From the NCBI GenBank assembly GCA_043812955.1, contig JBDRLN010000012.1, positions 12,749 through 76,748 on the forward strand: 64,000 bases of DNA. The letters are read 5' to 3'. Of the stretch, positions 7,797-57,810 are shown piece by piece. The position numbers were made by a program, and so were the translations under genes. Origin of the DNA: Candidatus Omnitrophota bacterium. Its GTDB lineage: Bacteria > Omnitrophota > Gorgyraeia > Gygaellales > Profunditerraquicolaceae. Position 1 is the first letter of the stretch; each line of letters begins with the position of its first letter. The notes under the pieces were generated by a model that did not search any database, was not told the DNA's origin, and saw nothing but the letters and a program-made list of their open reading frames with translations.

Positions 7797-9047
7797 TCAT
7801 ATAATTTCCTTCATTATCAGATCCTGATAAGTATCTCTTCTTCTTATAACCCTAGATTTGTTTTTCCTGACCATTACTTCCGCAGCCTTCCGGCGGGAAT
7901 TATAGTTACTGGACATGCTAAAACCGTAAGCCCCGGCGCTCATTACCGCCAAGTAATCCCCGGCTTTTACACAAGGCAAAAGCCTGTCTTTGGCCAAGAA
8001 ATCACCGCTTTCACATATCGGCCCTACCACATCAACTTTTTCAACTTTACCTATACCTTTACCTATACCTTCCACTGGTAATATATTATGGTAGGCCTCA
8101 TATAGCGCTGGACGAATTAAATCATTCATCCCGGCATCAACTATGATAAATTTTTTTACCGGGGTGCCTTTAATATATAAAACTTTAGTAACTAGTATCC
8201 CGGCATTTCCAACAATAAACCTGCCCGGCTCAAAAATTATCTTCAGATTAATTTTCTTTAAAATGGGCAAAACCTTTGCGGCGAATTCCTGGGCCGTCTG
8301 AGGGGTCTCTTGATCATAAATAATCCCTAATCCTCCGCCCATATTCAAGAATTCTAACTTTACCCCGTTTCTTTGCAGGGCACTAATAAATGAAATAACC
8401 TTTTTTAAGGCTTGGACAAAAGGAGCTCCTTTAGTTATCTGCGAACCTATGTGCATATGTAAACCGCAGATATTTATATTTAAAAGTTTGCGCCTAAGCG
8501 ATAAAATCTTAGTGGCGTTATTTAAATCAATACCGAATTTATTGGTTATCTTGCCGGTGGTGATAAAATGATGCGTATTGGCCTCAACATCAGGATTAAT
8601 CCTAATCGCGACCTTGGTAATTTTATTTAATTTTTTAGCCACCCGGTTAATATTCTCCAGTTCAGGCAAAGATTCAACATTAAAAAGTAAAATTCCTTTT
8701 TTTATCGCTTCTTCAATTTCTCTGTCGGTTTTGCCTACCGAGGCGTATACTATTCTCTCCGGCGGGCATTTGGCCTTAAGCGCCCGGAACAGCTCTCCGC
8801 CGGAAACAATATCCAACCCGGCCCCTTTATCTACTAAGGCTTTTAATATAGCTAAATTTGAATTTGCTTTTACCGAATAGCAGATAATAGGCTTAATTTC
8901 CCGAAAAGCAGTTTTTAATTTTAAGAAATGGTCGATAAGAGTTTTATAGCTATAAACATAAAGCGGGGTGCCAAACTTTTCAGCCAAGTCCTTAACGTTT
9001 ACATTCTCGCAAAACAGTTTATTTTCTTGGTATTTAAATTCGTGCAT
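7797..9047 (-). CDS. lysA: diaminopimelate decarboxylase
   Basis: PLP fold-III decarboxylase: YSVKAN, HMHIGSQ, EPGRF, CESGD motifs; 416 aa. Confidence 0.9.
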   Translation of the reverse strand: MHEFKYQENKLFCENVNVKDLAEKFGTPLYVYSYKTLIDHFLKLKTAFREIKPIICYSVKANSNLAILKALVDKGAGLDIVSGGELFRALKAKCPPERIVYASVGKTDREIEEAIKKGILLFNVESLPELENINRVAKKLNKITKVAIRINPDVEANTHHFITTGKITNKFGIDLNNATKILSLRRKLLNINICGLHMHIGSQITKGAPFVQALKKVISFISALQRNGVKLEFLNMGGGLGIIYDQETPQTAQEFAAKVLPILKKINLKIIFEPGRFIVGNAGILVTKVLYIKGTPVKKFIIVDAGMNDLIRPALYEAYHNILPVEGIGKGIGKVEKVDVVGPICESGDFLAKDRLLPCVKAGDYLAVMSAGAYGFSMSSNYNSRRKAAEVMVRKNKSRVIRRRDTYQDLIMKEII

Positions 9048-30776: not shown

Positions 30777-31748
30777 TCATAAGGAGTGACCACCTGCTAT
30801 GGTAAGCCCAAGCAGTTCCTCCACTATTGAAACAAGCAAAGCGGATTGCTTAGAGACGCTATCAATTACTTTTTTTTGTTCCTCATTAAGAGCTCCGTAT
30901 GATCCATCCTGAAGTAATGATAGGTTTCCGTTAATCACTCCCAACGGTGTACGCAGTTTATGCGAAATAAGAGTTAAGGTATCCTGTTTTTGAAATTCTT
31001 CCGTGCGCGATAAGGTAACATCGCGTAAAACAAAAACAGTGCTTAATAGCTCTCCGGCTGAATTCTTTATCACATTCAAATTTACCTCTAAATATAATGC
31101 CTCTGTCGAATCGCTCTTTTGGCGCACTATATCAAATGTTTTATGCGTAATCGCTAAATCCATAAGAGCTTCTTTTTTTATAGAAACAGAATAATTCGTG
31201 AATAACTTTTCGACCAAATTAACATTCGCCGGATCGGTAATATTTAAATACTTTAAAATCTCCGCATTGCAATCTTTAATTAGATAATCCGGGGCGCAGA
31301 TTGCAATGCCATCGCTTACTTTATCAACCACTGCCTTAAATTTCTCCTTTTCCTCTAACTGCCGGCGGTAATAACTTATCTTGAGTATAGACTTAACTCT
31401 TGCTAATAGTTCAACCTTATCAACGGGCTTGGAGATAAAATCATCGCATCCTGCCTCAAGGGCTTTTACCTTGTCTTCGGTCTCCTTAAGTACGGTTACC
31501 ATTACCACCGGGATTTCCTTAGTCTTTTCGTCGGCACGCAAATTCTTGAGCACTTCTATGCCGGACATCTTGGGCATCATTACGTCCAGCAGAATCAGAT
31601 CGATTTGGTTATGGATAAGTTTTTCCAACGCTTCTTCACCGCTTGCCGCCTTGACAATTTCATAACCCTGCGGAACAAGATATGCTTCGAGAAGTTCAAT
31701 GTTTTGAGGCTGGTCATCAACAACTAAAATTACTGATTTGTCTTTCAT
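30777..31748 (-). CDS. receiver domain + PAS-like region + HisKA dimerisation/phosphoacceptor domain, no HATPase_c domain (Spo0B-like phosphotransfer protein or truncated hybrid kinase)
   Basis: Receiver KSVILVVDDQPQN...LILLDVMMPKMSGIEV...SKPV; H-box LISHKLRTPLGVINGN. The protein ends about 60 aa after the H-box and the next gene starts 39 nt later. Confidence 0.75.
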   Translation of the reverse strand: MKDKSVILVVDDQPQNIELLEAYLVPQGYEIVKAASGEEALEKLIHNQIDLILLDVMMPKMSGIEVLKNLRADEKTKEIPVVMVTVLKETEDKVKALEAGCDDFISKPVDKVELLARVKSILKISYYRRQLEEKEKFKAVVDKVSDGIAICAPDYLIKDCNAEILKYLNITDPANVNLVEKLFTNYSVSIKKEALMDLAITHKTFDIVRQKSDSTEALYLEVNLNVIKNSAGELLSTVFVLRDVTLSRTEEFQKQDTLTLISHKLRTPLGVINGNLSLLQDGSYGALNEEQKKVIDSVSKQSALLVSIVEELLGLTIAGGHSL

Positions 31749-31790: not shown

Positions 31791-32156
31791 TCACTTAATA
31801 AACTGACTGACTTCTTTCGCAAAGGTGCGCGTATTTATCGGCTTGCCAATAAATCCGGAATTAGGTATGTCTTCTATCTCTTTTTTTCCTTCCGCCATAA
31901 CCGAAGCAGTCACAAAAACAATTGGGATACCGATTGTCTCTTTGTCTTCGCGCAATATTCTAGCAGCTTCGCTACCACGCATATCCGGAAGCCGCACATC
32001 CATAATTATGATATCCGGTTTTTCTCTCTTGGTAATGGCAATTCCATCGGTAGCATTTTCAGCTTCAAATACTTCAAAGCCAGCGACCTCCAAAAGGTCT
32101 TTTTCCAGCATCAGATTATTTCTATTATCATCGACAATTACAACTTTCTTCTTCAT
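31791..32156 (-). CDS. stand-alone CheY-like receiver (Spo0F-like)
   Basis: KKKVVIVDDNRNN...DIIIMDVRLPDMRGSEA...GKPI; ATG at 32156 preceded by AAAGGAGG. Confidence 0.8.
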   Translation of the reverse strand: MKKKVVIVDDNRNNLMLEKDLLEVAGFEVFEAENATDGIAITKREKPDIIIMDVRLPDMRGSEAARILREDKETIGIPIVFVTASVMAEGKKEIEDIPNSGFIGKPINTRTFAKEVSQFIK

Positions 32157-39781: not shown

Positions 39782-41077
39782 CTAAGACGATGGGGCCTGC
39801 AACAACCCATGCTTGTCAGAGTTTAGCCTTATCCATTGCTTAATAATAAAATAACCCATGAAGCGAAAGATAGCATTTCTTAAGCGAAGCTTAAAGAGCA
39901 GTGAAATTGACCTGCGAAGAGAATAGAATTTAGTATATGCCTTAAGCACGCAAAGTTGTAATTCTTGGGCAGATAATAATTTTGGCTTAAAAACAATATG
40001 TTGGCCGTCATAAAAGCTCCAATCTTTGCTGAAAATCCTTTTTTGAGCTTCCAGTTCCTGATAAACTTTAGTCCCGGGAAAAGGAGTGAGGACTGCCATT
40101 TGAATGGTATCTATTTTATGCTTTATAGCAAACCTCAAGGTTTCCCAAACCGTATTTTTGTTATCATCTTCTCCTCCCAAAACAAACATGCCGTGGATTT
40201 TTATTCTTTTTTGATGAAAAGAGCGAATAGCATTAACAATTTCTTCGATGGTTTGGTTCTTTTGATAAGCCTTAAGAGTCCTGGGATTAATAGATTCAAA
40301 GCCTATACAGACAAGTTTACATCCTGCCCGAGCCATAAGATTTAACAGCCCATTATCTTTGGCAACGTCACAACGCACCTGGCAGCTCCAATTACTTATT
40401 TTATGTTTTAACAAAAGTTCCAATAAGCGCTTTGTACGTTTAGTATGCGCGGTAAAATTATCATCGCAGAAAAAGAAGGATTTTGTATTCCTGGATTTCA
40501 TTTCATTGACAATATTTTCAGCGCTGCGGAAACGGTATTTGCGGCCGAACATCTTTGTGACTGAACAAAAACTGCAATCAAAAGGACAGCCCCTGGAGGT
40601 AGAAATAGGGTGCAATGGAGAAGGCAGCTTAAATCCTTTAATCAATGAAAAATCCGGGATTGGCAGGATATCCAGGTCCGCAACCGGCTTACCAAAAACA
40701 ATCGGCTCTGTCCTTCTACCCTCAACCACATCAATGATAACCTCCTCAGCCTCTCCTACCACAACTTGTCTGGCAAACTCCAGCGCCTCATCAGGCATAA
40801 GACTTGCATGGACTCCGCCTATGATCACTTTTTCTTTAAGGAATCTTTTGGCTATTTCATAACCGCGCTTGGCTGTTGGAGTCAATATAGAAATACCGAT
40901 AAGATCCGCCTTTAAACTCGCATAATCAGGCGCAAGGATATTTTCGTTATATACCTCGACCTCATGACCCCTATTTTTTAAAATAGTCCCCAGATAAACA
41001 GGGCCCAATAAGGGCATGGGTATTTTACTATAGACATTTGCCTCGCACGCGCGAGGCTCAATAAGCACGATTTTCAT
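39782..41077 (-). CDS. B12-binding domain radical SAM enzyme (class B)
   Basis: N-terminal cobalamin-binding Rossmann-like domain, then CPFDCSFCS (CxxxCxxC) and a TIM-barrel region; 431 aa. Confidence 0.8.
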   Translation of the reverse strand: MKIVLIEPRACEANVYSKIPMPLLGPVYLGTILKNRGHEVEVYNENILAPDYASLKADLIGISILTPTAKRGYEIAKRFLKEKVIIGGVHASLMPDEALEFARQVVVGEAEEVIIDVVEGRRTEPIVFGKPVADLDILPIPDFSLIKGFKLPSPLHPISTSRGCPFDCSFCSVTKMFGRKYRFRSAENIVNEMKSRNTKSFFFCDDNFTAHTKRTKRLLELLLKHKISNWSCQVRCDVAKDNGLLNLMARAGCKLVCIGFESINPRTLKAYQKNQTIEEIVNAIRSFHQKRIKIHGMFVLGGEDDNKNTVWETLRFAIKHKIDTIQMAVLTPFPGTKVYQELEAQKRIFSKDWSFYDGQHIVFKPKLLSAQELQLCVLKAYTKFYSLRRSISLLFKLRLRNAIFRFMGYFIIKQWIRLNSDKHGLLQAPSS

Positions 41078-41348: not shown

Positions 41349-42560
41349 TTATTTACCCTCTGCCACAAGTCCGGGCGGAGCCTTGTGCCACTTATACCCA
41401 ACTGCTGCGTCGTCATATCCGCGCTTAAAAAGCCTCTTCATTTCCTGCTTATCAAACATCTCTTTTTGATTAGGCTTAAAATCATCTGGAATATACGCTA
41501 AATTATAATCCCATCCTCTTTCCTTCGCGAATGCGTAAATCCTGTAAGTGTCCCCGGCCATTTTTGACGCTCCATTGGTTTCAATCAAACGCGAAGTTAT
41601 CGCCGGCAGATTTACTTCTATCTGTTTGGAGTGCGGCGACATATAACAACAATTTAGGATATAAACCCGAGTCCTGAATCCTTCCTGATTGATCTCGGAT
41701 GATTGAACCGTAGATCCCCCCCCTTCCATTAGCTGATGAATATAAAAAAGCCCGCCAATAACCCCGCCGTCAGCATGCATCTCGTCATAACGCCTACCGC
41801 CGGCTTCAACTTGAAAATAGACCGGAGGAAGCATAGCTGAAAACGAGCAGGAGGCCAAAATTATTTTGCGGAACATTTTCATTGAATCGAGGCTTCCTCG
41901 GGATGCCAGCGCTCCCATGTCCCATATAACAAACCCCTGGGCGTCAAGATCCGAGGTTCCTACATATAGCCTGCGCCCTTTCCTATGCTCTTCGGCGATC
42001 CGCGCCATTAAATCCTCATCCACAATATCATCGATTTTTTTAGCGAACAGGGCTGAGCTATACACAGAATCTCCGAACAGAATGCCAAAAATACTCTTTG
42101 GTCTCACAACATCTTTGGTCGATATTGAGGTAAACAGGTCCGCAAGCCGGTCTTCATAGTCTTTTCCTGAAAACGCGGCAAGAGCGATGATCGATCCACT
42201 GGAATAGCCTGTAACTATCTTAAATACCGGCCGAGAGCCTTCCTTTGACCACCCGTGCAATAGCCCTATACCGTAAGCGCTGTTGGATACACCGCCTCCG
42301 ATTATAAGCACAGGGTACGTCTTGATACCGTCAACTAAATAGTCTGATTTGCCTTCTTCTTTAAAGGAATCTACCAGGCTCTGCCGCATCAAATAGAAAG
42401 AATCGGGCTTACCTTCATAGTAGCGTATATCCGGCATACCGACAACGACGGCCTTGCCAACAAGATTTTCCGGTACAGCATGTCGCACATGGGCACACCC
42501 TGATGCTGCGAAAACACAGGTTATTATTATAAATAAATGATATAATTTCTTTTGTCTCAT
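41349..42560 (-). CDS. secreted/lipoprotein patatin-like phospholipase (paralog of 46827..48104)
   Basis: Signal peptide + Cys; GGGVSNSAYGIG oxyanion motif and GYSSGS (G-x-S-x-G) nucleophile motif. The C-terminus LFKRGYDDAAVGYKWHKAPPG is shared with the paralog. Confidence 0.75.
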   Translation of the reverse strand: MRQKKLYHLFIIITCVFAASGCAHVRHAVPENLVGKAVVVGMPDIRYYEGKPDSFYLMRQSLVDSFKEEGKSDYLVDGIKTYPVLIIGGGVSNSAYGIGLLHGWSKEGSRPVFKIVTGYSSGSIIALAAFSGKDYEDRLADLFTSISTKDVVRPKSIFGILFGDSVYSSALFAKKIDDIVDEDLMARIAEEHRKGRRLYVGTSDLDAQGFVIWDMGALASRGSLDSMKMFRKIILASCSFSAMLPPVYFQVEAGGRRYDEMHADGGVIGGLFYIHQLMEGGGSTVQSSEINQEGFRTRVYILNCCYMSPHSKQIEVNLPAITSRLIETNGASKMAGDTYRIYAFAKERGWDYNLAYIPDDFKPNQKEMFDKQEMKRLFKRGYDDAAVGYKWHKAPPGLVAEGK

Positions 42561-43517: not shown

Positions 43518-43913
43518 TTATATCTCTCCTTTCTTTTTAAACGCACTATTAATAAGATCAACCAGCGCCTGGTCATTAAACGGTTTTTGTAAAAAACCTA
43601 CGGCCCCTGCATTTATAGCCTTCTTATTAAGCCTATAATTTTTATCCGCCGACATCATAATAATCGGGCGGCTAGAACCTGATTTAATAAGTTGCTGCTG
43701 CGTTTCCCATCCGTCTAATCCCGGCATATGGATATCCAGGAGTAAACAACCGGGAACGCTATTGGGCACAGCGCAAAAAAATTCTCCTGCGGAAGTAAAG
43801 GTATCCACAGTAAACCCGTACGTAGCCAGCAGGATGCTGAGCGCGCGGCATACTGAGATATCGTCATCCACAATAAAAATTTGTTTATTCCCCGGTGACA
43901 TTTTCTTTTCCAT
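43518..43913 (-). CDS. stand-alone receiver domain protein (paralog of the receiver of 44517..45137)
   Basis: IFIVDDDISVCRALSILLATYGF...LLLDIHMPGLDG...LQKPF; 131 aa. Confidence 0.8.
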   Translation of the reverse strand: MEKKMSPGNKQIFIVDDDISVCRALSILLATYGFTVDTFTSAGEFFCAVPNSVPGCLLLDIHMPGLDGWETQQQLIKSGSSRPIIMMSADKNYRLNKKAINAGAVGFLQKPFNDQALVDLINSAFKKKGEI

Positions 43914-43956: not shown

Positions 43957-44355
43957 CTATTTAAGATTATTTTCTTGTTCAGTAATTTTAGCAGCCTTAA
44001 CTCCGCCTCCGGGATTGACAGTCTCTAGAAATTCATATGATGGTTGAGCATAGACCCTATTTTTATCCCGCTGGACTAACTTACCGTCAAGAAAAAATAC
44101 TTCTGAATATATAATGCCCAGCGCGTTCATTTTCTCTATTTTTGACCTATTATTATTCGGATATTCCCAAACCTCATATTTTTTATTGTCTACTACCAGC
44201 GTACTTATTTTTTGCGGCTCCCCGATCTTGCGGATCACCTCTTCTTTGGACATTCCATACGTTAAGTCCATGTGTTCGGCTTGGTCAAAATTTTGAAAGA
44301 TAAAACCGCATCCCGATAACACCATCAATAAGAAAAAAACTATTAAGTTTCTCAT
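43957..44355 (-). CDS. hypothetical lipoprotein
   Basis: MRNLIVFFLLMVLSGCGF lipobox; no domain recognised. Confidence 0.5.
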   Translation of the reverse strand: MRNLIVFFLLMVLSGCGFIFQNFDQAEHMDLTYGMSKEEVIRKIGEPQKISTLVVDNKKYEVWEYPNNNRSKIEKMNALGIIYSEVFFLDGKLVQRDKNRVYAQPSYEFLETVNPGGGVKAAKITEQENNLK

Positions 44356-44433
44356 ATCTAACCCCCCTAAAATAAGACATCGAATTAGAAATAGCTTATG
44401 ATGGCATTATAGAAATATATCAGAATAAAATCA

Positions 44434-44453
44434 ATTGTACCTGGGTATAATCG
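44434..44453. promoter_or_regulatory. 20-bp near-palindrome AATTGTACCTGGGTATAATC (copy 1 of 3) upstream of the 43957..44355 lipoprotein gene and downstream of the FixJ-type regulator
   Basis: Related copies at 48147-48166 (perfect AATTATACC-TG-GGTATAATT) and 54241-54260. Confidence 0.5.
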
Positions 44454-44516
44454 AAAGGTTTTACGGTGCTAGTAGAGAAGATTGTATCGTTGAAGTGATT
44501 GATAAGAAATTAACGC

Positions 44517-45137
44517 TCAGGAGGAAGTAATGCCGCACTTTTCGGCGAAACGGATGAGCTCAGTCACGGTTTTAGCCTGCATCTTCTGCATGACCCGGCT
44601 GCGGTGAACTTTGATCGTCTGGAGGGCTGTTCCCCGCTTTCGGGCAATCTGCTTGCTCAGCATCCCCTTGGCTACGAGTCGAAAAACCTCTAGTTCTCGC
44701 GGAGACAAGGTTTTAATGCGGCGCTTAATCTTTGATATTACGGCTTGTTCTTTATCTTGAGCTTTGCTTTTTAAGATGGCTTGCGTAATGGCACTAAGTA
44801 GCTTCTTCTTAGTAAAGGGTTTGGGAAGAAAATCAATAGCCCCTGCCTTCATGCCTTTGACGCTCATCGGAATATCACCATGTCCCGTAATAAAGACAAT
44901 AGGGATGGTGAGTTTCCGTGCTGCCATGGCATCCTGAAGCGCAAATCCATTGATATCCGGTAGCTGGATATCCAAAACCAAGCACGACGGAAATTTAAGG
45001 TGCTTAAATGCCAGGAAGTCTGCTGCACGCATAAACGTCTCGACCTCAAACCCGTGTGATTTTAACAATAAGGATAGGGCCCTGCACACGGAAACATCGT
45101 CATCAACGATATAGATAATAGGCCTGCGGTTGTTCAC
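44517..45137 (-). CDS. FixJ/NarL-family response regulator (receiver + LuxR-type HTH); GTG start coupled to the kinase stop
   Basis: Receiver IYIVDDDVSVCRAL...VLDIQLPDINGF...LPKPF; C-terminal HTH LSPRELEVFRLVAKGMLSKQIARKRGTALQTIKVHRSRVMQKM. Confidence 0.9.
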   Translation of the reverse strand: MNNRRPIIYIVDDDVSVCRALSLLLKSHGFEVETFMRAADFLAFKHLKFPSCLVLDIQLPDINGFALQDAMAARKLTIPIVFITGHGDIPMSVKGMKAGAIDFLPKPFTKKKLLSAITQAILKSKAQDKEQAVISKIKRRIKTLSPRELEVFRLVAKGMLSKQIARKRGTALQTIKVHRSRVMQKMQAKTVTELIRFAEKCGITSS

Positions 45138-46081
45138 TAAACATCCTTCTTATTAACAGGAAGGGTAAAATAAAAAGTTGCCCCGCGATCAGGATTATTT
45201 TTTACATCCAATCGCCCGCCATGCCCCTCAATAATAGAACGGCTGATAGACAACCCCATACCCAAACCATCTGGCTTGCTGGTAAAAAATCGGGTGAATA
45301 GCTTAGGCATATTGTGTATAGGTATTCCACATCCGGAATCCTTCACCTCCACGATAATCGTGTCGGTATCTAAAAGCTTTGTGCGAATCAATATGTTACG
45401 GGCACCTTTACTACTCTCCAAGGCATCGAAACTATTGCTAATAAGATTCAGGAAAACCTGCTGCAGCTGTATTCGGTCGCCACAGACAAGCGGGATATTA
45501 GTATCCAACTCAGTTTTAATGATACTGTTCCTCACGGTGGCATCAGTGGCAATAAGCACGATAGTTTCGTTAATAAGAGCATTAATATCTATGGGCTTCC
45601 TTTCAGGCTTATTCTTCTTTAACAGTGAGCGTAATCGCTGGATGACATCAGTCGCCCGCTGGCCATCATTAATGATGTACTGAAGAATCTCCTGGAGTTT
45701 AGGCTCCCTGCCTACGAGCATGCGTTTGGCAGCCTGAGCGTAGGAAAGAATGGCCGTAAGAGGCTGGCTAATCTCATGAGCCAAAGACGAAACAAATTCC
45801 GCAAGTTTTCCCACCCTCGTGACGTGCAAAAGCTCCTGGCGCTGTTCATCAATCTCTTTCATACGAATCTGGATCTGCGCTTCTGAGCATATCTGTTTCT
45901 CGGCCCCAATCCTCAATTGCCCATTTCTTACCTTCAGCTCATCGGTTTGCTGCCGGATTTTATCTTTCAAATCGCTACGGTTTTTACGTAAACTAGCGAC
46001 TACCTCCTCAAGACGCACGCTCTCCCTGTTTCGGATTTTATTTCTCAATACGGGCTTTTTCGTTTTCTTTTTAATTTTCAT
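45137..46081 (-). CDS. cytoplasmic sensor histidine kinase (coiled-coil N-terminus, HisKA + HATPase_c, no recognisable sensor domain)
   Basis: H-box LAHEISQPLTAI; N box LISNSFDAL; G boxes DSGCGI, GLGMGLSISRSI; 314 aa. Confidence 0.85.
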   Translation of the reverse strand: MKIKKKTKKPVLRNKIRNRESVRLEEVVASLRKNRSDLKDKIRQQTDELKVRNGQLRIGAEKQICSEAQIQIRMKEIDEQRQELLHVTRVGKLAEFVSSLAHEISQPLTAILSYAQAAKRMLVGREPKLQEILQYIINDGQRATDVIQRLRSLLKKNKPERKPIDINALINETIVLIATDATVRNSIIKTELDTNIPLVCGDRIQLQQVFLNLISNSFDALESSKGARNILIRTKLLDTDTIIVEVKDSGCGIPIHNMPKLFTRFFTSKPDGLGMGLSISRSIIEGHGGRLDVKNNPDRGATFYFTLPVNKKDV

Positions 46082-46307: not shown

Positions 46308-46763
46308 TTACTCAACTTCACGCAGTCTTTTTGCGGCTTCTTCGAGCGCTTTGCGCGCCTGGTCTCTTACATTAATCCAATTACCCTGATTAGCGGCACT
46401 TACCATCACTAATTGCTCGGAAAGACCTTGCTTTATATGCTCGAGCGTATTTATATCAGCCTTAACTTTTTCTGTCTGCCCTTGGCGTTGTCGTTGCGTT
46501 ATATTAGCATCTACAAGCTCGATTTTTCTTTGCAATACTTTTGTAAACTTATCCTTTTGCTTATAGGGATAGTTTTTTAGAATCTCAAACACAAGCTGAT
46601 TGGGGTCCTCTTTGTTGCCTGACGTATTTTCTTTTATACTGCATTTGCTAGAATTGGCAAGGTTATAATAATCCCGCGGTTCACAAAGTTCGATTGCATA
46701 CACTTGGCATAAAAATTGTGACCCTAAAAATAACGCTGCACCTGCCACATAGAGTATCTTCAT
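46308..46763 (-). CDS. secreted hypothetical protein
   Basis: Signal peptide MKILYVAGAALFLGSQFLCQVYA; charged/coiled C-terminal half; no domain recognised. Confidence 0.5.
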   Translation of the reverse strand: MKILYVAGAALFLGSQFLCQVYAIELCEPRDYYNLANSSKCSIKENTSGNKEDPNQLVFEILKNYPYKQKDKFTKVLQRKIELVDANITQRQRQGQTEKVKADINTLEHIKQGLSEQLVMVSAANQGNWINVRDQARKALEEAAKRLREVE

Positions 46764-46826: not shown

Positions 46827-48104
46827 TTAATCCTCCGCCGCATATCCGGGTGGTGTTTTATGCCACTCATATCCATTGAACGCATCATCATATCCGCGCT
46901 TAAAGAGCCTCTGCATTTCTTTTGTATCAAAAAACTCTTTTGGATTAGACTTAAAATCGGCCGGAATATACGCTAAATTGAAATCCAGGCCCTTTCTCTT
47001 CACAAAAGCATAGATCCTGTAGATATCCCCGCCAAACGCCGCTGCCTGCAATGTCTCAAGAGAACGCAGGCCTATACCTAGCAGACTGTCTTTTACCCGT
47101 TGCCTAATCGGCGACATGTAACTAGTACTTAAAACATAAATCTGCGTCCGGTATTTTGAGGGATCGATACCAGAAACATTAGCCGCTCCTTCCATATTTT
47201 TTGTTAATCGGTCGATATAAAATATCTGCCTCATCGACCCGCCATCGACATGCATCTCATCATAAAGCTCTCCGGTTGCAGAAGAAACTTTGAAATACAC
47301 CGGAGGAAACATCATGGGCATGGCGCTTGAGGCCAGAAGTATTTTCTGGAACATTCTCACCGAATCGGCCCCGCCCTTACACGCAAGCGCCCCCATATCC
47401 CAAACAACAAACTCCTGCGCGTCAAGATTTACGGTCCCTATAAAGAGCCTGCGGCCGCGCCTATGTTCTTTGGCAACCTTTTCTATTAATTTCACATCCA
47501 CAATGGCCGAAACCTTTTTAACCAGCGGAGCGGGGCTCATAAAGGAGTTTCCGAATAAAATGCTGAATAAATTATTTTGTTTCATTATATCTTTGGTTGA
47601 AATCGTGGTAAAAAATTTCTCAAGCTGGCCGTCATAGTCTTTTCCTAAAAAAGCATAGCACGCTATGATCGCTCCGCTGCTGACGCCTGTAATTATCTTA
47701 AAAAGCGGCCGCGAGCCTTTCCTAGACCACCCCACTAAGAACCCTGCGCCATAGGCGCCCTTAGGCCCGCCGGCTGAGACGGCTAGCACAGGATAGGTCT
47801 TTCTACCAAGCAGATCGGTGGGATAATCAAAATTAGCTTCTTCTTTAAATGAATCCGCTAAGCTCTTCTGCATAGCGATCGGATCGGGATCATCAATATC
47901 AACACGGATATCCGGCATGCCGCTCATAGTAACTTTTCCGGCAGAATCTGGCGGCACGGCGTTGCGTGGCCGCATGCTCACACACCCCTGGATTGCTAGC
48001 ACGCTCATCAATAAAATAAATATAAAAAAACTGACATTAATTTTGTTCTTGTGGCTCTCGCGCATTAACCCCCACTCTCCTTTTATCGCTTCCGCTCTCG
48101 GCAT
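46827..48104 (-). CDS. secreted patatin-like phospholipase (paralog of 41349..42560)
   Basis: SAGGPKGAYGAGFLVGW oxyanion motif and GVSSGA nucleophile motif. The DGG catalytic Asp region (MHVDGGSM) and the LFKRGYDDAFNGYEWHKTPPG C-terminus are conserved. Confidence 0.75.
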   Translation of the reverse strand: MPRAEAIKGEWGLMRESHKNKINVSFFIFILLMSVLAIQGCVSMRPRNAVPPDSAGKVTMSGMPDIRVDIDDPDPIAMQKSLADSFKEEANFDYPTDLLGRKTYPVLAVSAGGPKGAYGAGFLVGWSRKGSRPLFKIITGVSSGAIIACYAFLGKDYDGQLEKFFTTISTKDIMKQNNLFSILFGNSFMSPAPLVKKVSAIVDVKLIEKVAKEHRRGRRLFIGTVNLDAQEFVVWDMGALACKGGADSVRMFQKILLASSAMPMMFPPVYFKVSSATGELYDEMHVDGGSMRQIFYIDRLTKNMEGAANVSGIDPSKYRTQIYVLSTSYMSPIRQRVKDSLLGIGLRSLETLQAAAFGGDIYRIYAFVKRKGLDFNLAYIPADFKSNPKEFFDTKEMQRLFKRGYDDAFNGYEWHKTPPGYAAED

Positions 48105-48146
48105 CTATAGTTCCGACTCTATTATAGAGAGCGACAGAATTAAATC

Positions 48147-48166
48147 AATTATACCTGGGTATAATT
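48147..48166. promoter_or_regulatory. perfect inverted repeat AATTATACC-TG-GGTATAATT in the divergent promoter region between the patatin gene (minus) and fabF (plus)
   Basis: Read directly. Overlaps a TATAAT -10-like box; a plausible fabF promoter TTGTAA-16-TGATATAAT lies at ~48220-48250. Confidence 0.55.
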
Positions 48167-48293
48167 GACACAATATTGGAATTAAATTAGCATATAAAAT
48201 AATACAAAGGACGATGATAATTTCTTGTAAATAATGATGGCAGTGATATAATTTATTTAATAAATTCCATTACTGAAATAAAAGGATCTAAAA

Positions 48294-50566: not shown

Positions 50567-53311
50567 TCATGATACCAGACCTGCTACCTGCTTTTTAAGC
50601 TTTATAACCTCTTGCCTTATACCTAAGGCTATTGCTTCATATTCATCTTTGGCCCCCAATTTTAGCCCCTCTACTTTAAGTTCGTCAAAATTAAAAGGCC
50701 TTCCAAAAGTTATTTTGATCGGATAAGGCCTCGGGAGCGACTTTGTCCTAGGCCAAGATTCGTATGAACCTGTTATTAATACCGGAATTAGCGGGATATT
50801 CAGCTCTTTTGCCAATATCCCGACCCCTTTTTTGAATTCTTTAACATTCCCGTCGATAGTTCTTTGACCCTCAGGAAAGATACAGACCATCTTGTCATTC
50901 TTTAGAACATAAGAAGCTGCCTGCATAGCTTCCACGAAATGCATACCCGGATCAATGGGAATAACCCTGATATATTTTATGATATCCTTAATAAAGAACT
51001 GTTCGAAATAGGCTCTAAAACCGACAAAGAAAAGGCCCTTTCGTAAACTCGCAGGCATAGCAGCCTCAACAATAAACGCATCCAGGTAACTGCCGTGGTT
51101 AACGCACAAGATGCACTTTCCCGTTCTCGGAATATTCTCTGTTCCTAAAACCTTAAGTCCCCAGATCACCCTAGACACAAGGCGTAAAATTTCAGCGAAT
51201 AGCCACATCCCTAAAATTGTCATCCGGCTTGGAGCTAAATTTAACTTTTTTATTATATCTTTAGCTGGCTTTTCGTTTAAGATCTCATTCCATAAAGTTT
51301 GGCTCTTGAGCTCTGGAATGGGCGCGCTTTGCAGTCCTTCGCCTGGAACCAGTCTTTCTATATCGAGAATAAGCTCTTTAACAGTAAAAATCTTAGCCAT
51401 TAACTCATTCGGGATGCGGATATTAAGCGCCTGCTCTAACGCGATTATTAGTTCTACGCGGCCCAACGAATCAATACCGAGATCCAATTCGATATGATCG
51501 CTGGGGGAAATCTCTCTTTCTAACTTTGCGCTTTTTTTCAGGGCCTCGATTATCTTCCTGCCAACACCGAAAGTGAGCAGCCTGAGATCCTCATCTGTAG
51601 CGGGGATTTCCTCCATCACGCCTTTTAACTTTATACCATTAAGCTCATTTAGATATTTGTTCTTAATTTCATACCTTTTTATCTTGCCCAGCCGCGTGCG
51701 CGGCAAGTCTTCCTTTACAATAATATAGCCCTTGATGCGTTTGTAGGGAGCAAGCCCCTCAGATGAATTTTCCAACTCCCATCTGATCACACTATTAAGA
51801 TCGACCTGCCCAACCTTGCGGCAATAGTCAGCGTCGGGCACTACCACGGCGGTCAACCTCTCCTCCTGCGCCCCGCCGACACCAAGAACGCATATTTCTT
51901 TAATGTAAGGGCTCTTAGTATAATGGGATTCTACCTCTTCGGGATAGATATTTTTTCCGGAGCTTAAAACAATTATCTCTTTTTTCCTTCCTGTAATATA
52001 AAGATAACCGTCCTTATCTATAAGGCCCAGGTCGCCGGAGTAAAACCATCCGTCCTTTAAAACACTCAAGGTCTCGTCCGCTCTGTTATAGTAGCCTTTC
52101 GTGACATTAGGGCCTTTGATCACCACCTCACCCATGCCGCTAACGTCAGGATTATCGATTTTCAATTCTACATCCGGGATCACTCTGCCGACAGAACCGA
52201 TCTTCTGCTTCTTTAATGGATTAAATGTTACCACCGGAGATGTTTCGGTAAGTCCGTATCCTTCAAGTATAGTAAAACCGATCTTCATAAGAAATCTCGC
52301 CGCTTCTTCATTTAACTTAGCGCCGCCACAGGCAAAAAATCTTAAAGTTTGCCCGAATGGCCGGTGTATTTTCGGCAGGGCCAGCTTGCTTAAATTTATT
52401 CCGCTAAACCTTCTTATCTGCCACAATATCTCTATCAGCCCAAAAAGAGGCGCCTTAAGTAAAAACGGCATCTTTTTCATCTTCTCTAATATATTCGTAA
52501 AAAAGAGAGAAAAAAGTTGCGGTACCCCTACCAGTATCGTTACCCCGGACTCTCTCATCAAATTCAGCAATTCATCGCTCCTAAGGCTTGAGGTATAAAT
52601 GACCCGTGCGCGGCAAAAAAGAGGCGTGATCAACGTAATCATAAAAGGGTAGGAATGATGCAGCGGTAATATCGATATGAAAGTATCCTTATCCGAGAAG
52701 AGTTTCAGCTTGTCGATACTTTGAAAATTAGAGCAAAAATTTTTATGCGTGAGCATTACTCCTTTTGGCGAGCCTGTGGTGCCTGATGTATAGATAAGCG
52801 AAGCGATATCTTCAGGAATAACTTCGGGCCATACGAGCCCTTCGCGCAAGGTAGATTTGACCTGCGCCAGACCCAAAAGGCGCTCTTTTTCAATATCCAG
52901 GTCTAATATAACGATTTTGTTCAGCCCGGCTTTTATCTTATTAATATTCTTTGTCTGAAAAACGGCGTTGGAGACAAATATGATTTTTGCGGCGCAGTCA
53001 TTGATGAGATTCTCTATTTCTTGTTCGGTCAACTGTGGATCTAGGGGGACACAGGCCAGTCCCGCAGCCATTATGCCTAAATAGATTATTGCCCATTCCG
53101 GCCGATTCTCTAAACATAAGCCAGCGAAGTCCCCCTTTTTAAAACCCTCATTTATTAGAAATGCGCCTATCCTTAGAGAGAGATCTTGAGTTTCCCCATA
53201 TGTCCATCCCTCCCAGGTAGAGCCTTTTTTTATTTGAAGGCATATCCTATCTGAAAATTGAGAAGAAATTTGAGCAAATATCTTATGGATAACTAAATCT
53301 TCCTTCTTCAT
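50567..53311 (-). CDS. tri-domain fatty-acid--AMP ligase / acyl-carrier domain / lysophospholipid acyltransferase (Aas-like but in reversed domain order)
   Basis: AMP-binding motifs YTSGTTGSPKGV and GYGLTE; phosphopantetheine site LDLGIDSLGRVEL; PlsC motif CVNHGSYLDAF and FPEGQRT; 914 aa. Confidence 0.8.
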   Translation of the reverse strand: MKKEDLVIHKIFAQISSQFSDRICLQIKKGSTWEGWTYGETQDLSLRIGAFLINEGFKKGDFAGLCLENRPEWAIIYLGIMAAGLACVPLDPQLTEQEIENLINDCAAKIIFVSNAVFQTKNINKIKAGLNKIVILDLDIEKERLLGLAQVKSTLREGLVWPEVIPEDIASLIYTSGTTGSPKGVMLTHKNFCSNFQSIDKLKLFSDKDTFISILPLHHSYPFMITLITPLFCRARVIYTSSLRSDELLNLMRESGVTILVGVPQLFSLFFTNILEKMKKMPFLLKAPLFGLIEILWQIRRFSGINLSKLALPKIHRPFGQTLRFFACGGAKLNEEAARFLMKIGFTILEGYGLTETSPVVTFNPLKKQKIGSVGRVIPDVELKIDNPDVSGMGEVVIKGPNVTKGYYNRADETLSVLKDGWFYSGDLGLIDKDGYLYITGRKKEIIVLSSGKNIYPEEVESHYTKSPYIKEICVLGVGGAQEERLTAVVVPDADYCRKVGQVDLNSVIRWELENSSEGLAPYKRIKGYIIVKEDLPRTRLGKIKRYEIKNKYLNELNGIKLKGVMEEIPATDEDLRLLTFGVGRKIIEALKKSAKLEREISPSDHIELDLGIDSLGRVELIIALEQALNIRIPNELMAKIFTVKELILDIERLVPGEGLQSAPIPELKSQTLWNEILNEKPAKDIIKKLNLAPSRMTILGMWLFAEILRLVSRVIWGLKVLGTENIPRTGKCILCVNHGSYLDAFIVEAAMPASLRKGLFFVGFRAYFEQFFIKDIIKYIRVIPIDPGMHFVEAMQAASYVLKNDKMVCIFPEGQRTIDGNVKEFKKGVGILAKELNIPLIPVLITGSYESWPRTKSLPRPYPIKITFGRPFNFDELKVEGLKLGAKDEYEAIALGIRQEVIKLKKQVAGLVS

Positions 53312-54084
53312 AGCGTATCAAGGAACCAATTTTTTACTTCCGCGACGAATTGCCTGGGATAATCCCGCATTAAGAACTCTGCGTGCGGACCGTTTTTAAT
53401 AGAAATTATTTTCTTCATCCCGCCTGCCTTTTGGAATAGGGCCTGGGAATGCCACGGCCTAATTACCCAATCCCGGCTGCCGTGTATAAACATAATCGGA
53501 ATGGTAATTTTAGCGACGTTATCAATTGGCCTTTCCTTAGGCAACCAAAATGGCCCCGGCCGCACTCCTTTGCCGATCCATCCCCTAGGATTAAATAACA
53601 TGTATACCACGTCTCCTTTCCAGTCAAAGGCCCATACCCGGTAATCAATTCTCGACATCTCCGAAGGAGCGCTGACGCAGATAAAGCTATCCACACGTTT
53701 ATCATTGGCGAGGACATTAATGCTAATACTTGCTCCTACAGAAAAGGCGATCAATCCAATCTTTGGGTAAAGCGGCGCAATAAAATCTAATACCGCACGC
53801 AAATCATTCCCTTCCCGGCTCGTCCAGGTAAATACCCCGCTGCTTTTGCCATGCCCACGAAAATCAAACATAAAAATATCGTATTCTCCCCCAAGCGCCT
53901 GAGTCAACTGCTGCAAAACCATGCACTGTTTGCTATTATAATAACCGTGCGCAATAATGATAACGGCGAGGCCGCCATTCTTAAAATGCTGGAATGATAT
54001 TTTCTGATGGTCAACAGTGGTAAGCGTACCGCTTTCTACCGCAGGAATCGCTGATTCAGGGCCCGGCGTATTCATCGCAACCAT
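53308..54084 (-). CDS. alpha/beta-hydrolase fold esterase/lipase
   Basis: HGYYNS...FRGHGKSSG oxyanion region and IAFSVGASI nucleophile elbow; 258 aa. Confidence 0.7.
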   Translation of the reverse strand: MVAMNTPGPESAIPAVESGTLTTVDHQKISFQHFKNGGLAVIIIAHGYYNSKQCMVLQQLTQALGGEYDIFMFDFRGHGKSSGVFTWTSREGNDLRAVLDFIAPLYPKIGLIAFSVGASISINVLANDKRVDSFICVSAPSEMSRIDYRVWAFDWKGDVVYMLFNPRGWIGKGVRPGPFWLPKERPIDNVAKITIPIMFIHGSRDWVIRPWHSQALFQKAGGMKKIISIKNGPHAEFLMRDYPRQFVAEVKNWFLDTL

Positions 54085-54240
54085 CCCATCTCAATTTTAG
54101 CTAAAATATTTATTTTGCAACTCTATCTTACGCGCTTTTTCGATCCCGGCCGTTAAACTCTCCCGCATCCTAAAAAGATGCTCTTTCCCTAACTTCATGT
54201 TAGTATTATAGAATATTATAGAAGTATTCGAAATGGAATC

Positions 54241-54260
54241 AATTGTACCTAGGTATTATA
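54241..54260. promoter_or_regulatory. 20-bp near-palindrome AATTGTACCTAGGTATTATA (copy 3) in the upstream region of the hydrolase / acyl-ligase-ACP-PlsC unit
   Basis: Flanking ~170 bp is homologous to 44431-44600. Confidence 0.45.
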
Positions 54261-54299
54261 GTCCTAGGATTTTACTGTTTCTTTCGGGAAAATTTTGTC

Positions 54300-54400
54300 T
54301 TTGAAGTGATTACGAAGAAATTAGTACCGGAAGGAAGTAATGCCTATTTTTTGGGCGAAGCGGATGAGTTTAGTCGCGGCATTAGCCTGCAGCTTCCGCC
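54300..54400 (-). pseudogene. remnant of the C-terminus of a FixJ/LuxR-type response regulator gene
   Basis: Minus strand encodes ...NAATKLIRFAQKIGITSFRY* against the C-terminus of 44517..45137 (KTVTELIRFAEKCGITSS*). Downstream non-coding sequence is also conserved. Confidence 0.5.
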
Positions 54401-55648: not shown

Positions 55649-56653
55649 TTAACTAACTTTTTCCTCTCTTATGAATTTTGCCGCTAATTCCGGCGGAGTA
55701 GGCACCAGATAAAAACCAGTACCCCATTCAAATCCCGCAACTTTAGTTAACTTCGGCATAAACTCCAGATGCCAGTGATAACCTTCCATTTCGCCATCGC
55801 CGTTAATAGGCGCGCTGTGAATAATAAAATTATAAGCTATATTTCCGAAAATCTTTTTCACCCTGGAGATCAACTCCTTGACGATCTCTGCTAACGCCGG
55901 AATTTCCTCCATAGACATATGGCAGAAATATTTATTATGTGCCTTGGGGATAACCCAGACCTCAAAAGGAAAACGCGAAACAAAAGGGCAAAAAGCCAGA
56001 AAATATTTATTTTCTATGACTATCCTCTCCTTCTCCTGAACTTCCTGGCGGATAACATCGCAGAATATGCACCTATCCCGGTATTCAAAATATTTACGCG
56101 CCCCCATAATCTCTTCCTTGACATTCTTGGGCACCATTGGTAAAGCAATTAATTGAGTATGTGGATGCTCCAACGAAGCCCCGGCAGCCGGGCCGTAATT
56201 CTTAAACACCATCACATATTTAAAACGGCTGTCCCGAATCAGGTCCAAGGCCCGGACGCAGCACAACGAAAAGATATTCTCGACTTCATTATTTAATAAA
56301 TCCGGTATATCCTTATGGTGGTAGGGAGAATCGATGATAACTTCATGAGCGCCTACGCCATTAGACATATCGTAAATACCCAAGCCTCTTCGGTCCAAAT
56401 CTCCCTCGATCTGAAGCGCAGGATATTTATTCGAAACCACCCTGGTAAGCCATCCGGGGGTATCAGGGGAAGTTCCGGATTCGCGGATCGCGATTATTTC
56501 CGGAGGGGTCTGGGATTCATTGCCGTAGCAAAAAGGGCAAACCCCATCTCTCCAGGCCGGAGATTCAATATCATAATCTTTAGGCAGATTAGGATGGTCA
56601 GTATCCACTATTACCCACCTGCCGGCGATCGGATCTCTTCTTAATTCTGACAT
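55649..56653 (-). CDS. galactose-1-phosphate uridylyltransferase (GalT/HIT branch III) family nucleotidyltransferase with intact H-P-H motif
   Basis: Zn site CPFCYGNE; catalytic GASLEHPHTQLIALP; 334 aa. Confidence 0.7.
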   Translation of the reverse strand: MSELRRDPIAGRWVIVDTDHPNLPKDYDIESPAWRDGVCPFCYGNESQTPPEIIAIRESGTSPDTPGWLTRVVSNKYPALQIEGDLDRRGLGIYDMSNGVGAHEVIIDSPYHHKDIPDLLNNEVENIFSLCCVRALDLIRDSRFKYVMVFKNYGPAAGASLEHPHTQLIALPMVPKNVKEEIMGARKYFEYRDRCIFCDVIRQEVQEKERIVIENKYFLAFCPFVSRFPFEVWVIPKAHNKYFCHMSMEEIPALAEIVKELISRVKKIFGNIAYNFIIHSAPINGDGEMEGYHWHLEFMPKLTKVAGFEWGTGFYLVPTPPELAAKFIREEKVS

Positions 56654-56769: not shown

Positions 56770-57810
56770 CTATCCTCCCTTGGAGGATATCTCTACTTCT
56801 CTTAAAAATTTAGCCGAACTCTCCGGTGGCACCGGACAGATATAAAAACCCGTTCCCCATTCAAACCCGGCTACCCGGGTCAGGCGGGGAGTAATCTCTA
56901 TATGCCAATGATAATCTTCTTCAATACTCTTCCAGTATCCCATCTTTTTCCTACGGAACGGCGCTGTATGCACAATGTAATTATAGGGCGGGTCATTTAA
57001 ACCTGTTTTTATCTTCAATAAAACTTGTTTTAATATCCGGGCTAAATTTTTCCTCTCTTGATCATCTAACCGGACAAAATCGCAGCTATGTTTCTTGGGC
57101 AGAATCCAGACTTCAAAAGGAAACCGAGAAGCAAAAGGAACTACGGCAATAAAACCGTCGATCTCCAGGATCAACCGGTCTTTTGACTCTAATTCCTGCT
57201 TGACTAAATCACAGAAAACGCACCTTTCATGATGGTCATAATATTCTTTTGCGCCCACTAATTCTTCTTTTACCCGTTTGGGATTAATCGGGGTAGCAAT
57301 TAACTGGGTCCGGGAATGCCTGACCTTTCCTCCGCCGGCAGACCAGCCATAGTTCTTAAATACTAAAACATACTTAAAGCGTTCGTCTTTTTCCAGGTCA
57401 ACGATCCGGTCGATATAACAGGCAATAACCCGTTTGATCTGTTCTTCAGGCAGATCGCAGATATTAGCCATATGTTGGTTGGTTTCAACGACTATCTCAT
57501 GGGCGCCGACACCGTTCATCAAGTCGTATAAACCCTTGCCGGTCCGGTCAAGTTCTCCCTCAATCCTCAAAAATGGGGTAAGACTAGGCACAACCCGCAA
57601 TTCCCATCCCGGGGTATTAGAAGGAGTATGGGTTGGCCTTATCGAATATATTTCATTGGGAGTTTCCAATTCCTTGCCCGGACAAAAAGGGCAGGGTTTT
57701 TCAACAGGCCCTTCCTGGGCAAAGTTAGTTAACTGATCCGGCCTTTTAGCCCGTTCAGTAGCAATAATTACCCAGCGTCCGATAATAGGATCTTTTCTTA
57801 ATTCCGGCAT
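56770..57810 (-). CDS. GalT-family paralog with the catalytic H-P-H replaced by H-S-R (probably non-catalytic or altered function)
   Basis: Zn site CPFCPGKE conserved, but the active-site region reads GGGKVRHSRTQLIATP; 346 aa. ~40% identity to the upstream paralog. Confidence 0.65.
   Translation of the reverse strand: MPELRKDPIIGRWVIIATERAKRPDQLTNFAQEGPVEKPCPFCPGKELETPNEIYSIRPTHTPSNTPGWELRVVPSLTPFLRIEGELDRTGKGLYDLMNGVGAHEIVVETNQHMANICDLPEEQIKRVIACYIDRIVDLEKDERFKYVLVFKNYGWSAGGGKVRHSRTQLIATPINPKRVKEELVGAKEYYDHHERCVFCDLVKQELESKDRLILEIDGFIAVVPFASRFPFEVWILPKKHSCDFVRLDDQERKNLARILKQVLLKIKTGLNDPPYNYIVHTAPFRRKKMGYWKSIEEDYHWHIEITPRLTRVAGFEWGTGFYICPVPPESSAKFLREVEISSKGG

Follow-up and report, generated by a model that had tools for sequence, protein, structure and literature searches.

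A palindrome fused to the -35 element as the probable operator of a StyR/FixJ-like two-component regulon in uncultured Omnitrophota

The lux box, an inverted repeat of 20 bp, has its centre at -42.5 and overlaps the -35 region; from this site a LuxR-type dimer activates transcription by class II contact. In Mycobacterium, the NarL-family regulator DosR/DevR controls a dormancy regulon, and its Dos box is a 20-bp palindrome. In Pseudomonas, activation requires that the phosphorylated StyR dimer occupy STY2, a high-affinity site at about -40, while StyR itself represses from other positions (PMC2442086). FixJ sites are 16-18-bp imperfect palindromes located between -69 and -31 (PMC4999443). For Omnitrophota, which are widespread and uncultured, no described transcription-factor regulon, nor relevant response-regulator work, was found in the searchable literature. 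Here, a 20-bp palindrome is analysed that occurs in three copies within a 64,000-nt stretch of DNA from a Candidatus Omnitrophota bacterium (assembly GCA_043812955.1, contig JBDRLN010000012.1), the whole of which is termed the window. The initial annotation, made from the letters of this stretch, had regarded the palindrome as the site of a dimer of the neighbouring LuxR/FixJ-family regulator. The comparison presented below supports that proposal through positional linkage across genomes and through the likeness of the box to that of StyR, the regulator being a candidate binder. The palindrome is likely the operator of a two-component regulon that extends across a large uncultured Omnitrophota clade, where a StyR/FixJ-like regulator would bind and activate.

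All three copies are intergenic, each located upstream of minus-strand genes. Copy 2, at 48147-48166 as first described, is perfect (AATTATACC-TG-GGTATAATT), with 9-bp arms around a non-symmetric 2-bp centre. Copy 1 lies 64 nt 3' of the stop codon of the regulator gene, and its coordinates had been given one position off (44433-44452, not 44434-44453). Copy 3 departs from the perfect 20-mer at 4 positions and from the 18-mer consensus ATTRTACCYRGGTAYAAT at 1; its left half is degenerate (ATAATACC), and it was recovered by a search with the core pattern. From 100 dinucleotide-preserving shuffles of the window, 0.03 occurrences of the 20-mer with at most 3 mismatches are expected by chance, and none of the 100 shuffles gave three matches. 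No further copy with at most 2 mismatches was found in the remaining ~54 kb of the window, beyond the 10 kb around the regulator, and an Rfam scan of 40-58 kb returned no known RNA family. In blastn, an alignment of 187 nt at 74% identity pairs 54215-54399 with the copy-1 promoter, the 64-nt spacer 3' of the regulator gene and the final ~24 codons of that gene, and a tblastn query with the GerE domain of the regulator also matches 54333-54395. On this alignment, copy 3 arose by duplication, and both searches bear out the decayed duplicate of the regulator's C-terminus that had been noticed beside it.

When the three minus-strand regions are aligned (n = 3), they share ATTATACC-YR-GGTAyAAT followed by TGATT, 16-17 nt and TATAAT. 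The box consensus is (A/G)TTATACC-YR-GGTAyAAT, the last T of which is the first base of the -35 hexamer TTGATT. Assuming the usual 7 nt from the -10 hexamer to the predicted start site, the centre of the palindrome is placed at -42.5 with a 16-nt spacer and at -43.5 with a 17-nt spacer. The copy-3 promoter contains a second TATAAT at 54210..54205. It can be observed in other genomes that a -10-like hexamer lies 16-18 nt past TTGATT at 92 of 98 sites, 49 of them with a perfect TATAAT; among six chance matches in other phyla, none had a correctly spaced -10. The symmetric outer bases (ATT or GTT), which lie outside the scan pattern, are present at 77 of the 98 sites. When loci centred on the regulator were searched for the palindrome only, a -35-like hexamer (TTGATT or TAGACA) began at the last T of the box at all 16 sites, while anchoring on the right half plus TGATT yielded 8 extra sites missed by the whole-pattern scan, every one of which has the left half. 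The central two bases vary between sites, as expected of a spacer between two contacted half-sites. Across more than 100 promoters of unrelated genes, the register of the box relative to the predicted -35/-10 pair is the same within 1 bp, and no box was found over the -10 or downstream of the predicted start.

The distribution of the box was obtained by scanning one genome per species (185,579 species) with the 20-mer ATACCYRGGTAYAATTGATT as the pattern. The scan matched 92 stretches, with up to 5 exact sites per metagenome-assembled genome (MAG). All but about 6 of these stretches belong to MAGs labelled Omnitrophota or Omnitrophica, a few "uncultured Planctomycetales" bins and one Auribacterota bin, and the 6 matches in Bacteroidota, Idiomarina and Pedobacter agree with the ~9 expected by chance. 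A genome-wide motif scan had been proposed in the initial annotation; its outcome is a box that is restricted to one clade and associated with promoters. The "uncultured Planctomycetales" bins (binchicken assemblies) carry the Omnitrophota-type box, several together with a regulator orthologue, at loci L003, L007, L020, L042, L044, L049, L053, L064, L067, L074 and L082; their labels are probably too coarse or wrong.

Positional linkage between the box and the regulator gene was examined from both sides. At 41 of 100 sites, a regulator orthologue (63-86% identity) is located in the same locus of at most 8 kb, and 26 of the 100 sites follow the stop codon of the regulator gene within 150 nt and in the same orientation, compared with less than 1% expected for a gene that a genome of a few Mb contains in one or two copies. 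Eight loci centred on the regulator were then fetched via the regulator protein, independently of the motif; with the window added and the near-identical L096-L098 counted as one, eight independent loci were available (L001, L002, L096, L099, L101, L102, L103 and the window). In all eight, a REC + GerE regulator is paired with a histidine kinase and 1-4 boxes lie within 10 kb, and in seven a box is found directly 3' of the regulator gene. At L001, the box begins at the regulator stop codon.

The 206-aa regulator itself carries the only GerE-type helix-turn-helix (HTH) of the window in tblastn searches, apart from the decayed fragment at copy 3, in agreement with the earlier statement that it is the sole LuxR-type regulator present. 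It is 100% identical to a protein of a Candidatus Omnitrophota MAG, and the best 120 listed database clusters (82-100% identity) are Omnitrophota wherever an organism is named. Among solved structures, StyR of Pseudomonas is the nearest to it (1YIO; E=1.9e-49, 43% identity across 196 aa, no gaps), and the recognition helices of the two proteins, TIKVHRSRVMQK in the regulator and TVKVHRHNIMQK in StyR, have T(V/I)KVHR..(I/V)MQK in common. Among 30 distinct regulator orthologues, the recognition-helix region LQTIKVHRSRVMQKM is nearly invariant, which parallels the near-invariant box, and invariant positions account for 45% of the HTH region versus 26% of the receiver domain. The sty box ATAAACCATGGTTTAT (ATAAACC-AT-GGTTTAT), as read from pSTY, a plasmid of Pseudomonas sp. 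VLB120, where it stands between the styR and styA genes, is a perfect palindrome. Like the Omnitrophota box (TTATACC-YR-GGTATAA), it follows a 7-2-7 arrangement around an ACC-NN-GGT core, with outer parts rich in A/T. Counted outwards, the half-sites CCAAATA (sty) and CCATATT (Omnitrophota) agree at 5 of 7 positions; the differences fall on positions 5 and 8, as numbered from the centre. On the strength of the cross-genome linkage and this resemblance to the box of StyR, the adjacent FixJ/LuxR-type regulator is most likely the binder, and by far the best candidate.

The kinase encoded upstream has a FixL-like core (NCBIfam FixL 192.5, with a cut-off of 850); in its 90-aa N-terminus no recognised sensor domain and no heme-PAS was detected, and orthologous operons use PAS kinases. 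A tblastn query with the receiver domain of the regulator finds further receiver domains in the window at 28170-28481, 31440-31739 and 31905-32144. The features of the region are collected in Table 1.

Table 1. Features of the box-bearing region in window coordinates; operators are putative and all promoter positions are predicted.
Feature	Coordinates	Strand	Basis or remark
Operator copy 1	44433..44452 (18-mer core 44434-44451)	(-)	AATTGTACCTGGGTATAATC; 2 mismatches to copy-2 20-mer
Operator copy 2	48147..48166 (18-mer core 48148-48165)	(-)	Read on minus strand: ATTATACCCAGGTATAAT
Operator copy 3	54241..54260 (18-mer core 54242-54259)	(-)	AATTGTACCTAGGTATTATA
Distal element CCGTAAAACCTTTCG	44452..44466	(-)	Directly 5' of copy 1
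Decayed regulator 3' end (~54326-54399) and its 3' spacer, duplicated together with promoter	54261..54399	(-)	blastn, tblastn
Predicted promoter, lipoprotein + single-domain response-regulator unit	44406..44434	(-)	-35 TTGATT 44434..44429, 17-nt spacer, -10 TATAAT 44411..44406
Predicted sigma70-type promoter, patatin-p151-kinase-regulator unit	48121..48148	(-)	-35 TTGATT 48148..48143, 16-nt spacer, -10 TATAAT 48126..48121
Predicted promoter, hydrolase + FAAL-ACP-PlsC unit	54215..54242	(-)	-35 TTGATT 54242..54237, 16-nt spacer, -10 TATAAT 54220..54215
Candidate binder: response regulator, REC + GerE/LuxR-type HTH, FixJ/StyR subfamily	44517..45137	(-)	Pfam Response_reg + GerE
Cognate histidine kinase, HisKA + HATPase_c	45137..46081	(-)	Pfam
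p151, secreted 151-aa protein of no assigned function	46308..46763	(-)	Heads kinase-regulator operon in relatives; box upstream in 6/8 orthologues
Patatin-like phospholipase, first gene behind copy 2	46827..48104	(-)	Pfam; L077 orthologue behind perfect box
132-aa lipoprotein, weak BamE-like match, copy-1 target	43957..44355	(-)	Orthologue box conservation
Single-domain response regulator, co-transcribed behind lipoprotein	43518..43913	(-)	Pfam; commonest box-controlled gene in other genomes
Alpha/beta hydrolase, copy-3 target	53308..54084	(-)	Pfam; orthologues with box
Aas-like acyl-ligase/ACP/lysophospholipid acyltransferase fusion	50567..53311	(-)	Overlaps hydrolase stop codon (same operon)
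fabF's own extended -10 promoter TGATATAAT, outside the regulon	48244..48252	(+)	~45 nt before fabF ATG

Target lists were established by clustering the first open reading frame (ORF) behind each site and by mapping the window proteins onto all loci. The single-domain response regulator forms a cluster of 18, and it is also found behind the lipoprotein, as in the window. The MlaE-MlaF-MlaD operon forms a cluster of 8, the hydrolase, together with the Aas-like gene, a cluster of 4, and the patatin a cluster of 2. The box is located ~87 nt upstream of the 132-aa lipoprotein gene in 8/8 orthologues, and orthologues of the hydrolase carry it in L008, L019, L022 and L103. The p151 gene heads p151-kinase-regulator operons, implying that the two-component system is often autoregulated; this order with a box is found in L042 and L099. 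Single instances behind a box comprise GGDEF, PilZ, hemerythrin, an MgtA-like ATPase, DUF3309, DUF5670, DUF2934, the low-affinity iron-permease family, a TRL lipoprotein, polysaccharide export and PAS proteins, and the small genes Transgly_assoc, BON, DUF1328 and PLDc_N follow further along the same gene runs. The patatin, the hydrolase with the FAAL-ACP-PlsC unit and the lipoprotein, each of which has a box in other genomes, are plausible targets within the window. As judged from these gene contents, the regulon is an envelope, lipid and stress set and not a dedicated lipid-synthesis regulon. The initial annotation had suggested that the two-component system controls membrane-lipid remodelling; of that proposal, the patatin and the hydrolase/FAAL-ACP-PlsC unit stand as plausible targets, while fabF-plsC is not supported. 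The regulon is much wider, its commonest targets being the single-domain response regulator, the Mla transporter and small proteins of membrane or stress type.

Just past the regulon genes of the window lie a second patatin paralogue and a B12-binding radical-SAM gene, at 41349-42560 and 39782-41077. Both are without a box, and distant relatives of the radical-SAM gene are found behind boxes in L041, L052 and L026. For the patatin ORF behind copy 2, the annotation probably includes 13 codons too many: translation probably begins at the ATG at 48065, which is preceded by an AAAGGAG Shine-Dalgarno sequence and followed by a lipoprotein-type signal (..AIQGC), and the predicted transcription start at ~48114 leaves only 10 nt to the ATG at 48104. 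Elsewhere in the window, the glyceraldehyde-3-phosphate dehydrogenase gene is adjoined by two tandem GalT/HIT-like (DUF4921/DUF4931) nucleotidyl-transferase paralogues at 55649-56653 and 56770-57810.

Copy 2 had been placed in a divergent patatin/fabF promoter, with fabF-plsC among the controlled genes. The layout itself recurs with a perfect box in L077. All three box promoters are directed along the minus strand, so that copy 2 belongs primarily to the patatin-p151-kinase-regulator promoter. The fabF side is not supported: fabF has its own extended -10, TGATATAAT, which is kept in the window, in L077 (~775-783) and in L102 (~8800-8812, minus strand) and is followed by a conserved A/T-rich leader, and fabF is without a box in L051, L102 and L103. 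On the plus strand, TTGACA (48165-48170), 17 nt and TAGCAT are readable beside copy 2.

Further regularities surround the promoter module. At the position of the distal element, an AAAA-yCyTACG block is present in about half of all sites, its AAAA occupying -10..-7 and its CnTACG directly preceding the box. The 64-nt spacer from the regulator stop codon to the box is conserved (TAATTTCTT..ATCACTTCAA.GAyAAAATTTTC...ccGTAAAAyCyTAcG) in the window at 44452-44516 and 54261-54325 and also in L008, L039, L050, L051 and L054, and it accompanies the promoter even where the regulator gene is missing. This spacer and its AAAA block could be a contact of the C-terminal domain of the RNA polymerase alpha subunit (alpha-CTD) of UP-like type, or a second protein site. 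Compared by eye with the half-site and with published FixJ motifs from in vitro selection (SELEX), the distal element ccGTAAAAyCyTACG is alike only in a GTA core, with different orientation and spacing. A variant box, ATTGTACC-TT-GGTAYAAT, with -35 TAGACA in place of TTGATT, precedes a second operon upstream of the regulator, which consists of a single-domain regulator and a PAS kinase (L002 7885-7902, L096 6158-6175); the variant is also present in L075, ~96 nt ahead of the second gene for a single-domain regulator there. The ATG of mlaE lies 6-7 nt after the -10 in 8/8 cases, and the same applies to an in-frame ATG of the single-domain regulator (L002 11969-12025, L099 10643-10698, L101 10737-10790, L002 15308-15365). 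With no room for a Shine-Dalgarno sequence, many box promoters thus appear to give leaderless mRNAs. Some gene callers put the mlaE start within the operator (e.g. L002 11986), and the geometry of the box corrects such automatically set starts.

The box with its geometry and conservation, its association with the regulator gene and the genes behind it are directly observed. For the binder, the sign of regulation and the start sites, which we infer from sequence comparison, the following course of events is proposed. The adjacent histidine kinase would phosphorylate the response regulator, and the phosphorylated dimer would bind (A/G)TTATACC-YR-GGTAyAAT with one GerE-type HTH per half-site of the 7-2-7 layout. 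Positioned beside the -35, the dimer would activate through direct, class II contact with RNA polymerase, in the manner of StyR at STY2 and of LuxR at the lux box; this mode is suggested by the strict register between box and -35 at the unrelated promoters and by the behaviour of StyR at STY2. In the window, three minus-strand units would be driven in this manner, comprising the lipoprotein with the single-domain regulator, the patatin-p151-kinase-regulator unit, and the hydrolase with the Aas-like acyl-ligase/acyltransferase. The box ahead of the second unit would give rise to positive autoregulation.

Several observations weigh against activation by this regulator. About 60% of the sites are not near a regulator gene, so the linkage is statistical and not absolute, and the kinase-regulator operon has no box in L102 and L103, indicating that autoregulation is not universal. 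The best NCBIfam match of the regulator is FixJ at 197.8 bits, below the cut-off of 255, so binding specificity is not transferable by orthology. Because the pattern that selected most loci contained TGATT, the constancy of the -35 is exaggerated, and the set free of this bias is limited to the 16 sites found with the palindrome only; moreover, all promoter coordinates are predictions. Finally, the -35 TTGATT and the -10 TATAAT are near consensus, which is unusual for strictly activator-dependent promoters and leaves room for repression. The same regulator on the same box could then act as a repressor, its dimer on -52..-35 blocking access of sigma region 4 and the alpha-CTD and the signal either relieving or imposing repression. 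With half of the -10 hexamers perfect and TTGATT equal to TTGACA at 4/6 positions, an activator is perhaps unneeded, and repression by StyR from other positions (PMC2442086) shows such behaviour in a relative. Operators of repressors, however, are usually found at varying positions, frequently on top of the -10 or +1, while the register here is fixed, as is typical of activators, no box covers the -10 or lies past the predicted start, and the closest relative, StyR, activates from ~-40; repression is therefore considered unlikely.

The sites without a regulator orthologue in the fetched locus would also fit another transcription factor that is not encoded beside the box, for instance a FapR-like lipid regulator or a global regulator, with the two-component neighbourhood reflecting co-regulation only. 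The Bacillus FapR operator is a TAC-rich palindrome before fab/pls genes. However, of all DNA-binding genes only that of the regulator recurs next to the box, and sites directly 3' of it are far more frequent than the chance value given above. The box also resembles the sty box, and the window encodes no other GerE-type HTH, which together make a different factor improbable. A FapR-like operator in particular was rejected, since fab genes do not recur consistently behind the box, which is linked to the response-regulator gene, no search for FapR having been made. The half-sites contain TATAAT/TACAAT, so that the reverse strand displays a -10-like hexamer, and the box is always fused to the -35; it might accordingly be a pure promoter element read by RNA polymerase, such as an extended -10, an UP element or an alternative-sigma -35. 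Against this stand a separate -35/-10 pair downstream of the box that points to the gene, RGG instead of TGn before the internal TATAAT, a reverse-strand hexamer without a -35 at 17 nt, two-fold symmetry with a variable 2-bp centre, which is the signature of a dimeric protein, and a -10 that is a housekeeping TATAAT and not of the extracytoplasmic-function (ECF) type. A pure promoter element is therefore very improbable, and the extended -10, which the initial annotation had named as a possible refutation of its proposal, is rejected on geometry, as is an alternative-sigma element. That the copies are remnants of repeats or mobile elements, or of local duplication, with no regulatory role is scarcely credible. 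Copies 1 and 3 do share the 187 nt that include the regulator-gene fragment, so at least one copy stems from segmental duplication. Between unrelated sites, however, likeness is confined to ~50 nt of promoter, orthologous genes with diverged flanks have the box in front of them in many species, and neither terminal repeats nor transposase genes accompany the copies; the hydrolase promoter with the same spacer in L008 and L103 indicates that the duplication is old and has been retained.

The regulon is new and well supported, and the mechanism, a NarL/FixJ-family dimer on a palindrome beside the -35, is textbook. For this widespread group, a precise operator/promoter consensus, a named candidate regulator and a recurrent target list are now available, and the findings suggest that a response concerning envelope, lipids and stress is conserved. 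More tentatively, the two-component system might govern, as its master switch, an envelope programme of general-stress or dormancy-like character throughout a major Omnitrophota clade. Such a programme would combine Mla transport, phospholipid turnover of patatin/Aas type, lipoproteins, small membrane stress proteins of the families DUF3309, DUF5670 and DUF2934 (with Transgly_assoc and BON genes in the gene runs adjoining the regulator), cyclic di-GMP proteins and a partner single-domain regulator under one strictly phased promoter module, often with leaderless mRNAs, a role held by alternative sigma factors in better-known phyla.

Compared with the systems described at the outset, DosR differs in subfamily and box sequence, and neither universal stress proteins nor alpha-crystallin occur among the box targets. 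What it shares with the present regulator is membership of the NarL/FixJ superfamily, autoregulation, here in several genomes, and a palindrome of ~20 bp beside the -35 of dispersed promoters of small stress and membrane proteins. With LuxR, to whose lux box the palindrome had been likened from the beginning, the GerE/LuxR-type HTH, the box length and the -35-adjacent position are common; the geometric part of that comparison thus stands, whereas the box sequence is unrelated and the regulator is of another type. A lux box of quorum sensing was rejected, the N-terminus of the regulator being Response_reg and not an autoinducer-binding domain, and no luxI-type gene is present among the genes annotated around the regulator (40-61 kb). 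FixL/FixJ belongs to the same response-regulator subfamily, and FixJ (5XSO) is the second-best PDB match of the regulator; a true FixJ orthologue with a FixJ box was discarded on the sub-threshold score and because the FixJ site TAAGTAATTTCCCTTA (PMC4999443) is unlike the box, and none of the fixK/nif targets of the FixJ system is among the box targets. The sty system, with TodS/TodT as the sister system of StyS/StyR, is the nearest in regulator and box. It differs in that StyR serves one catabolic operon, whereas the Omnitrophota regulon comprises many dispersed envelope and stress promoters, and in that StyS and TodS are of the double-kinase type, whereas the Omnitrophota kinases are short or PAS-only. 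The gene order of kinase, regulator, box and target is nevertheless common to the sty operon and the Omnitrophota locus.

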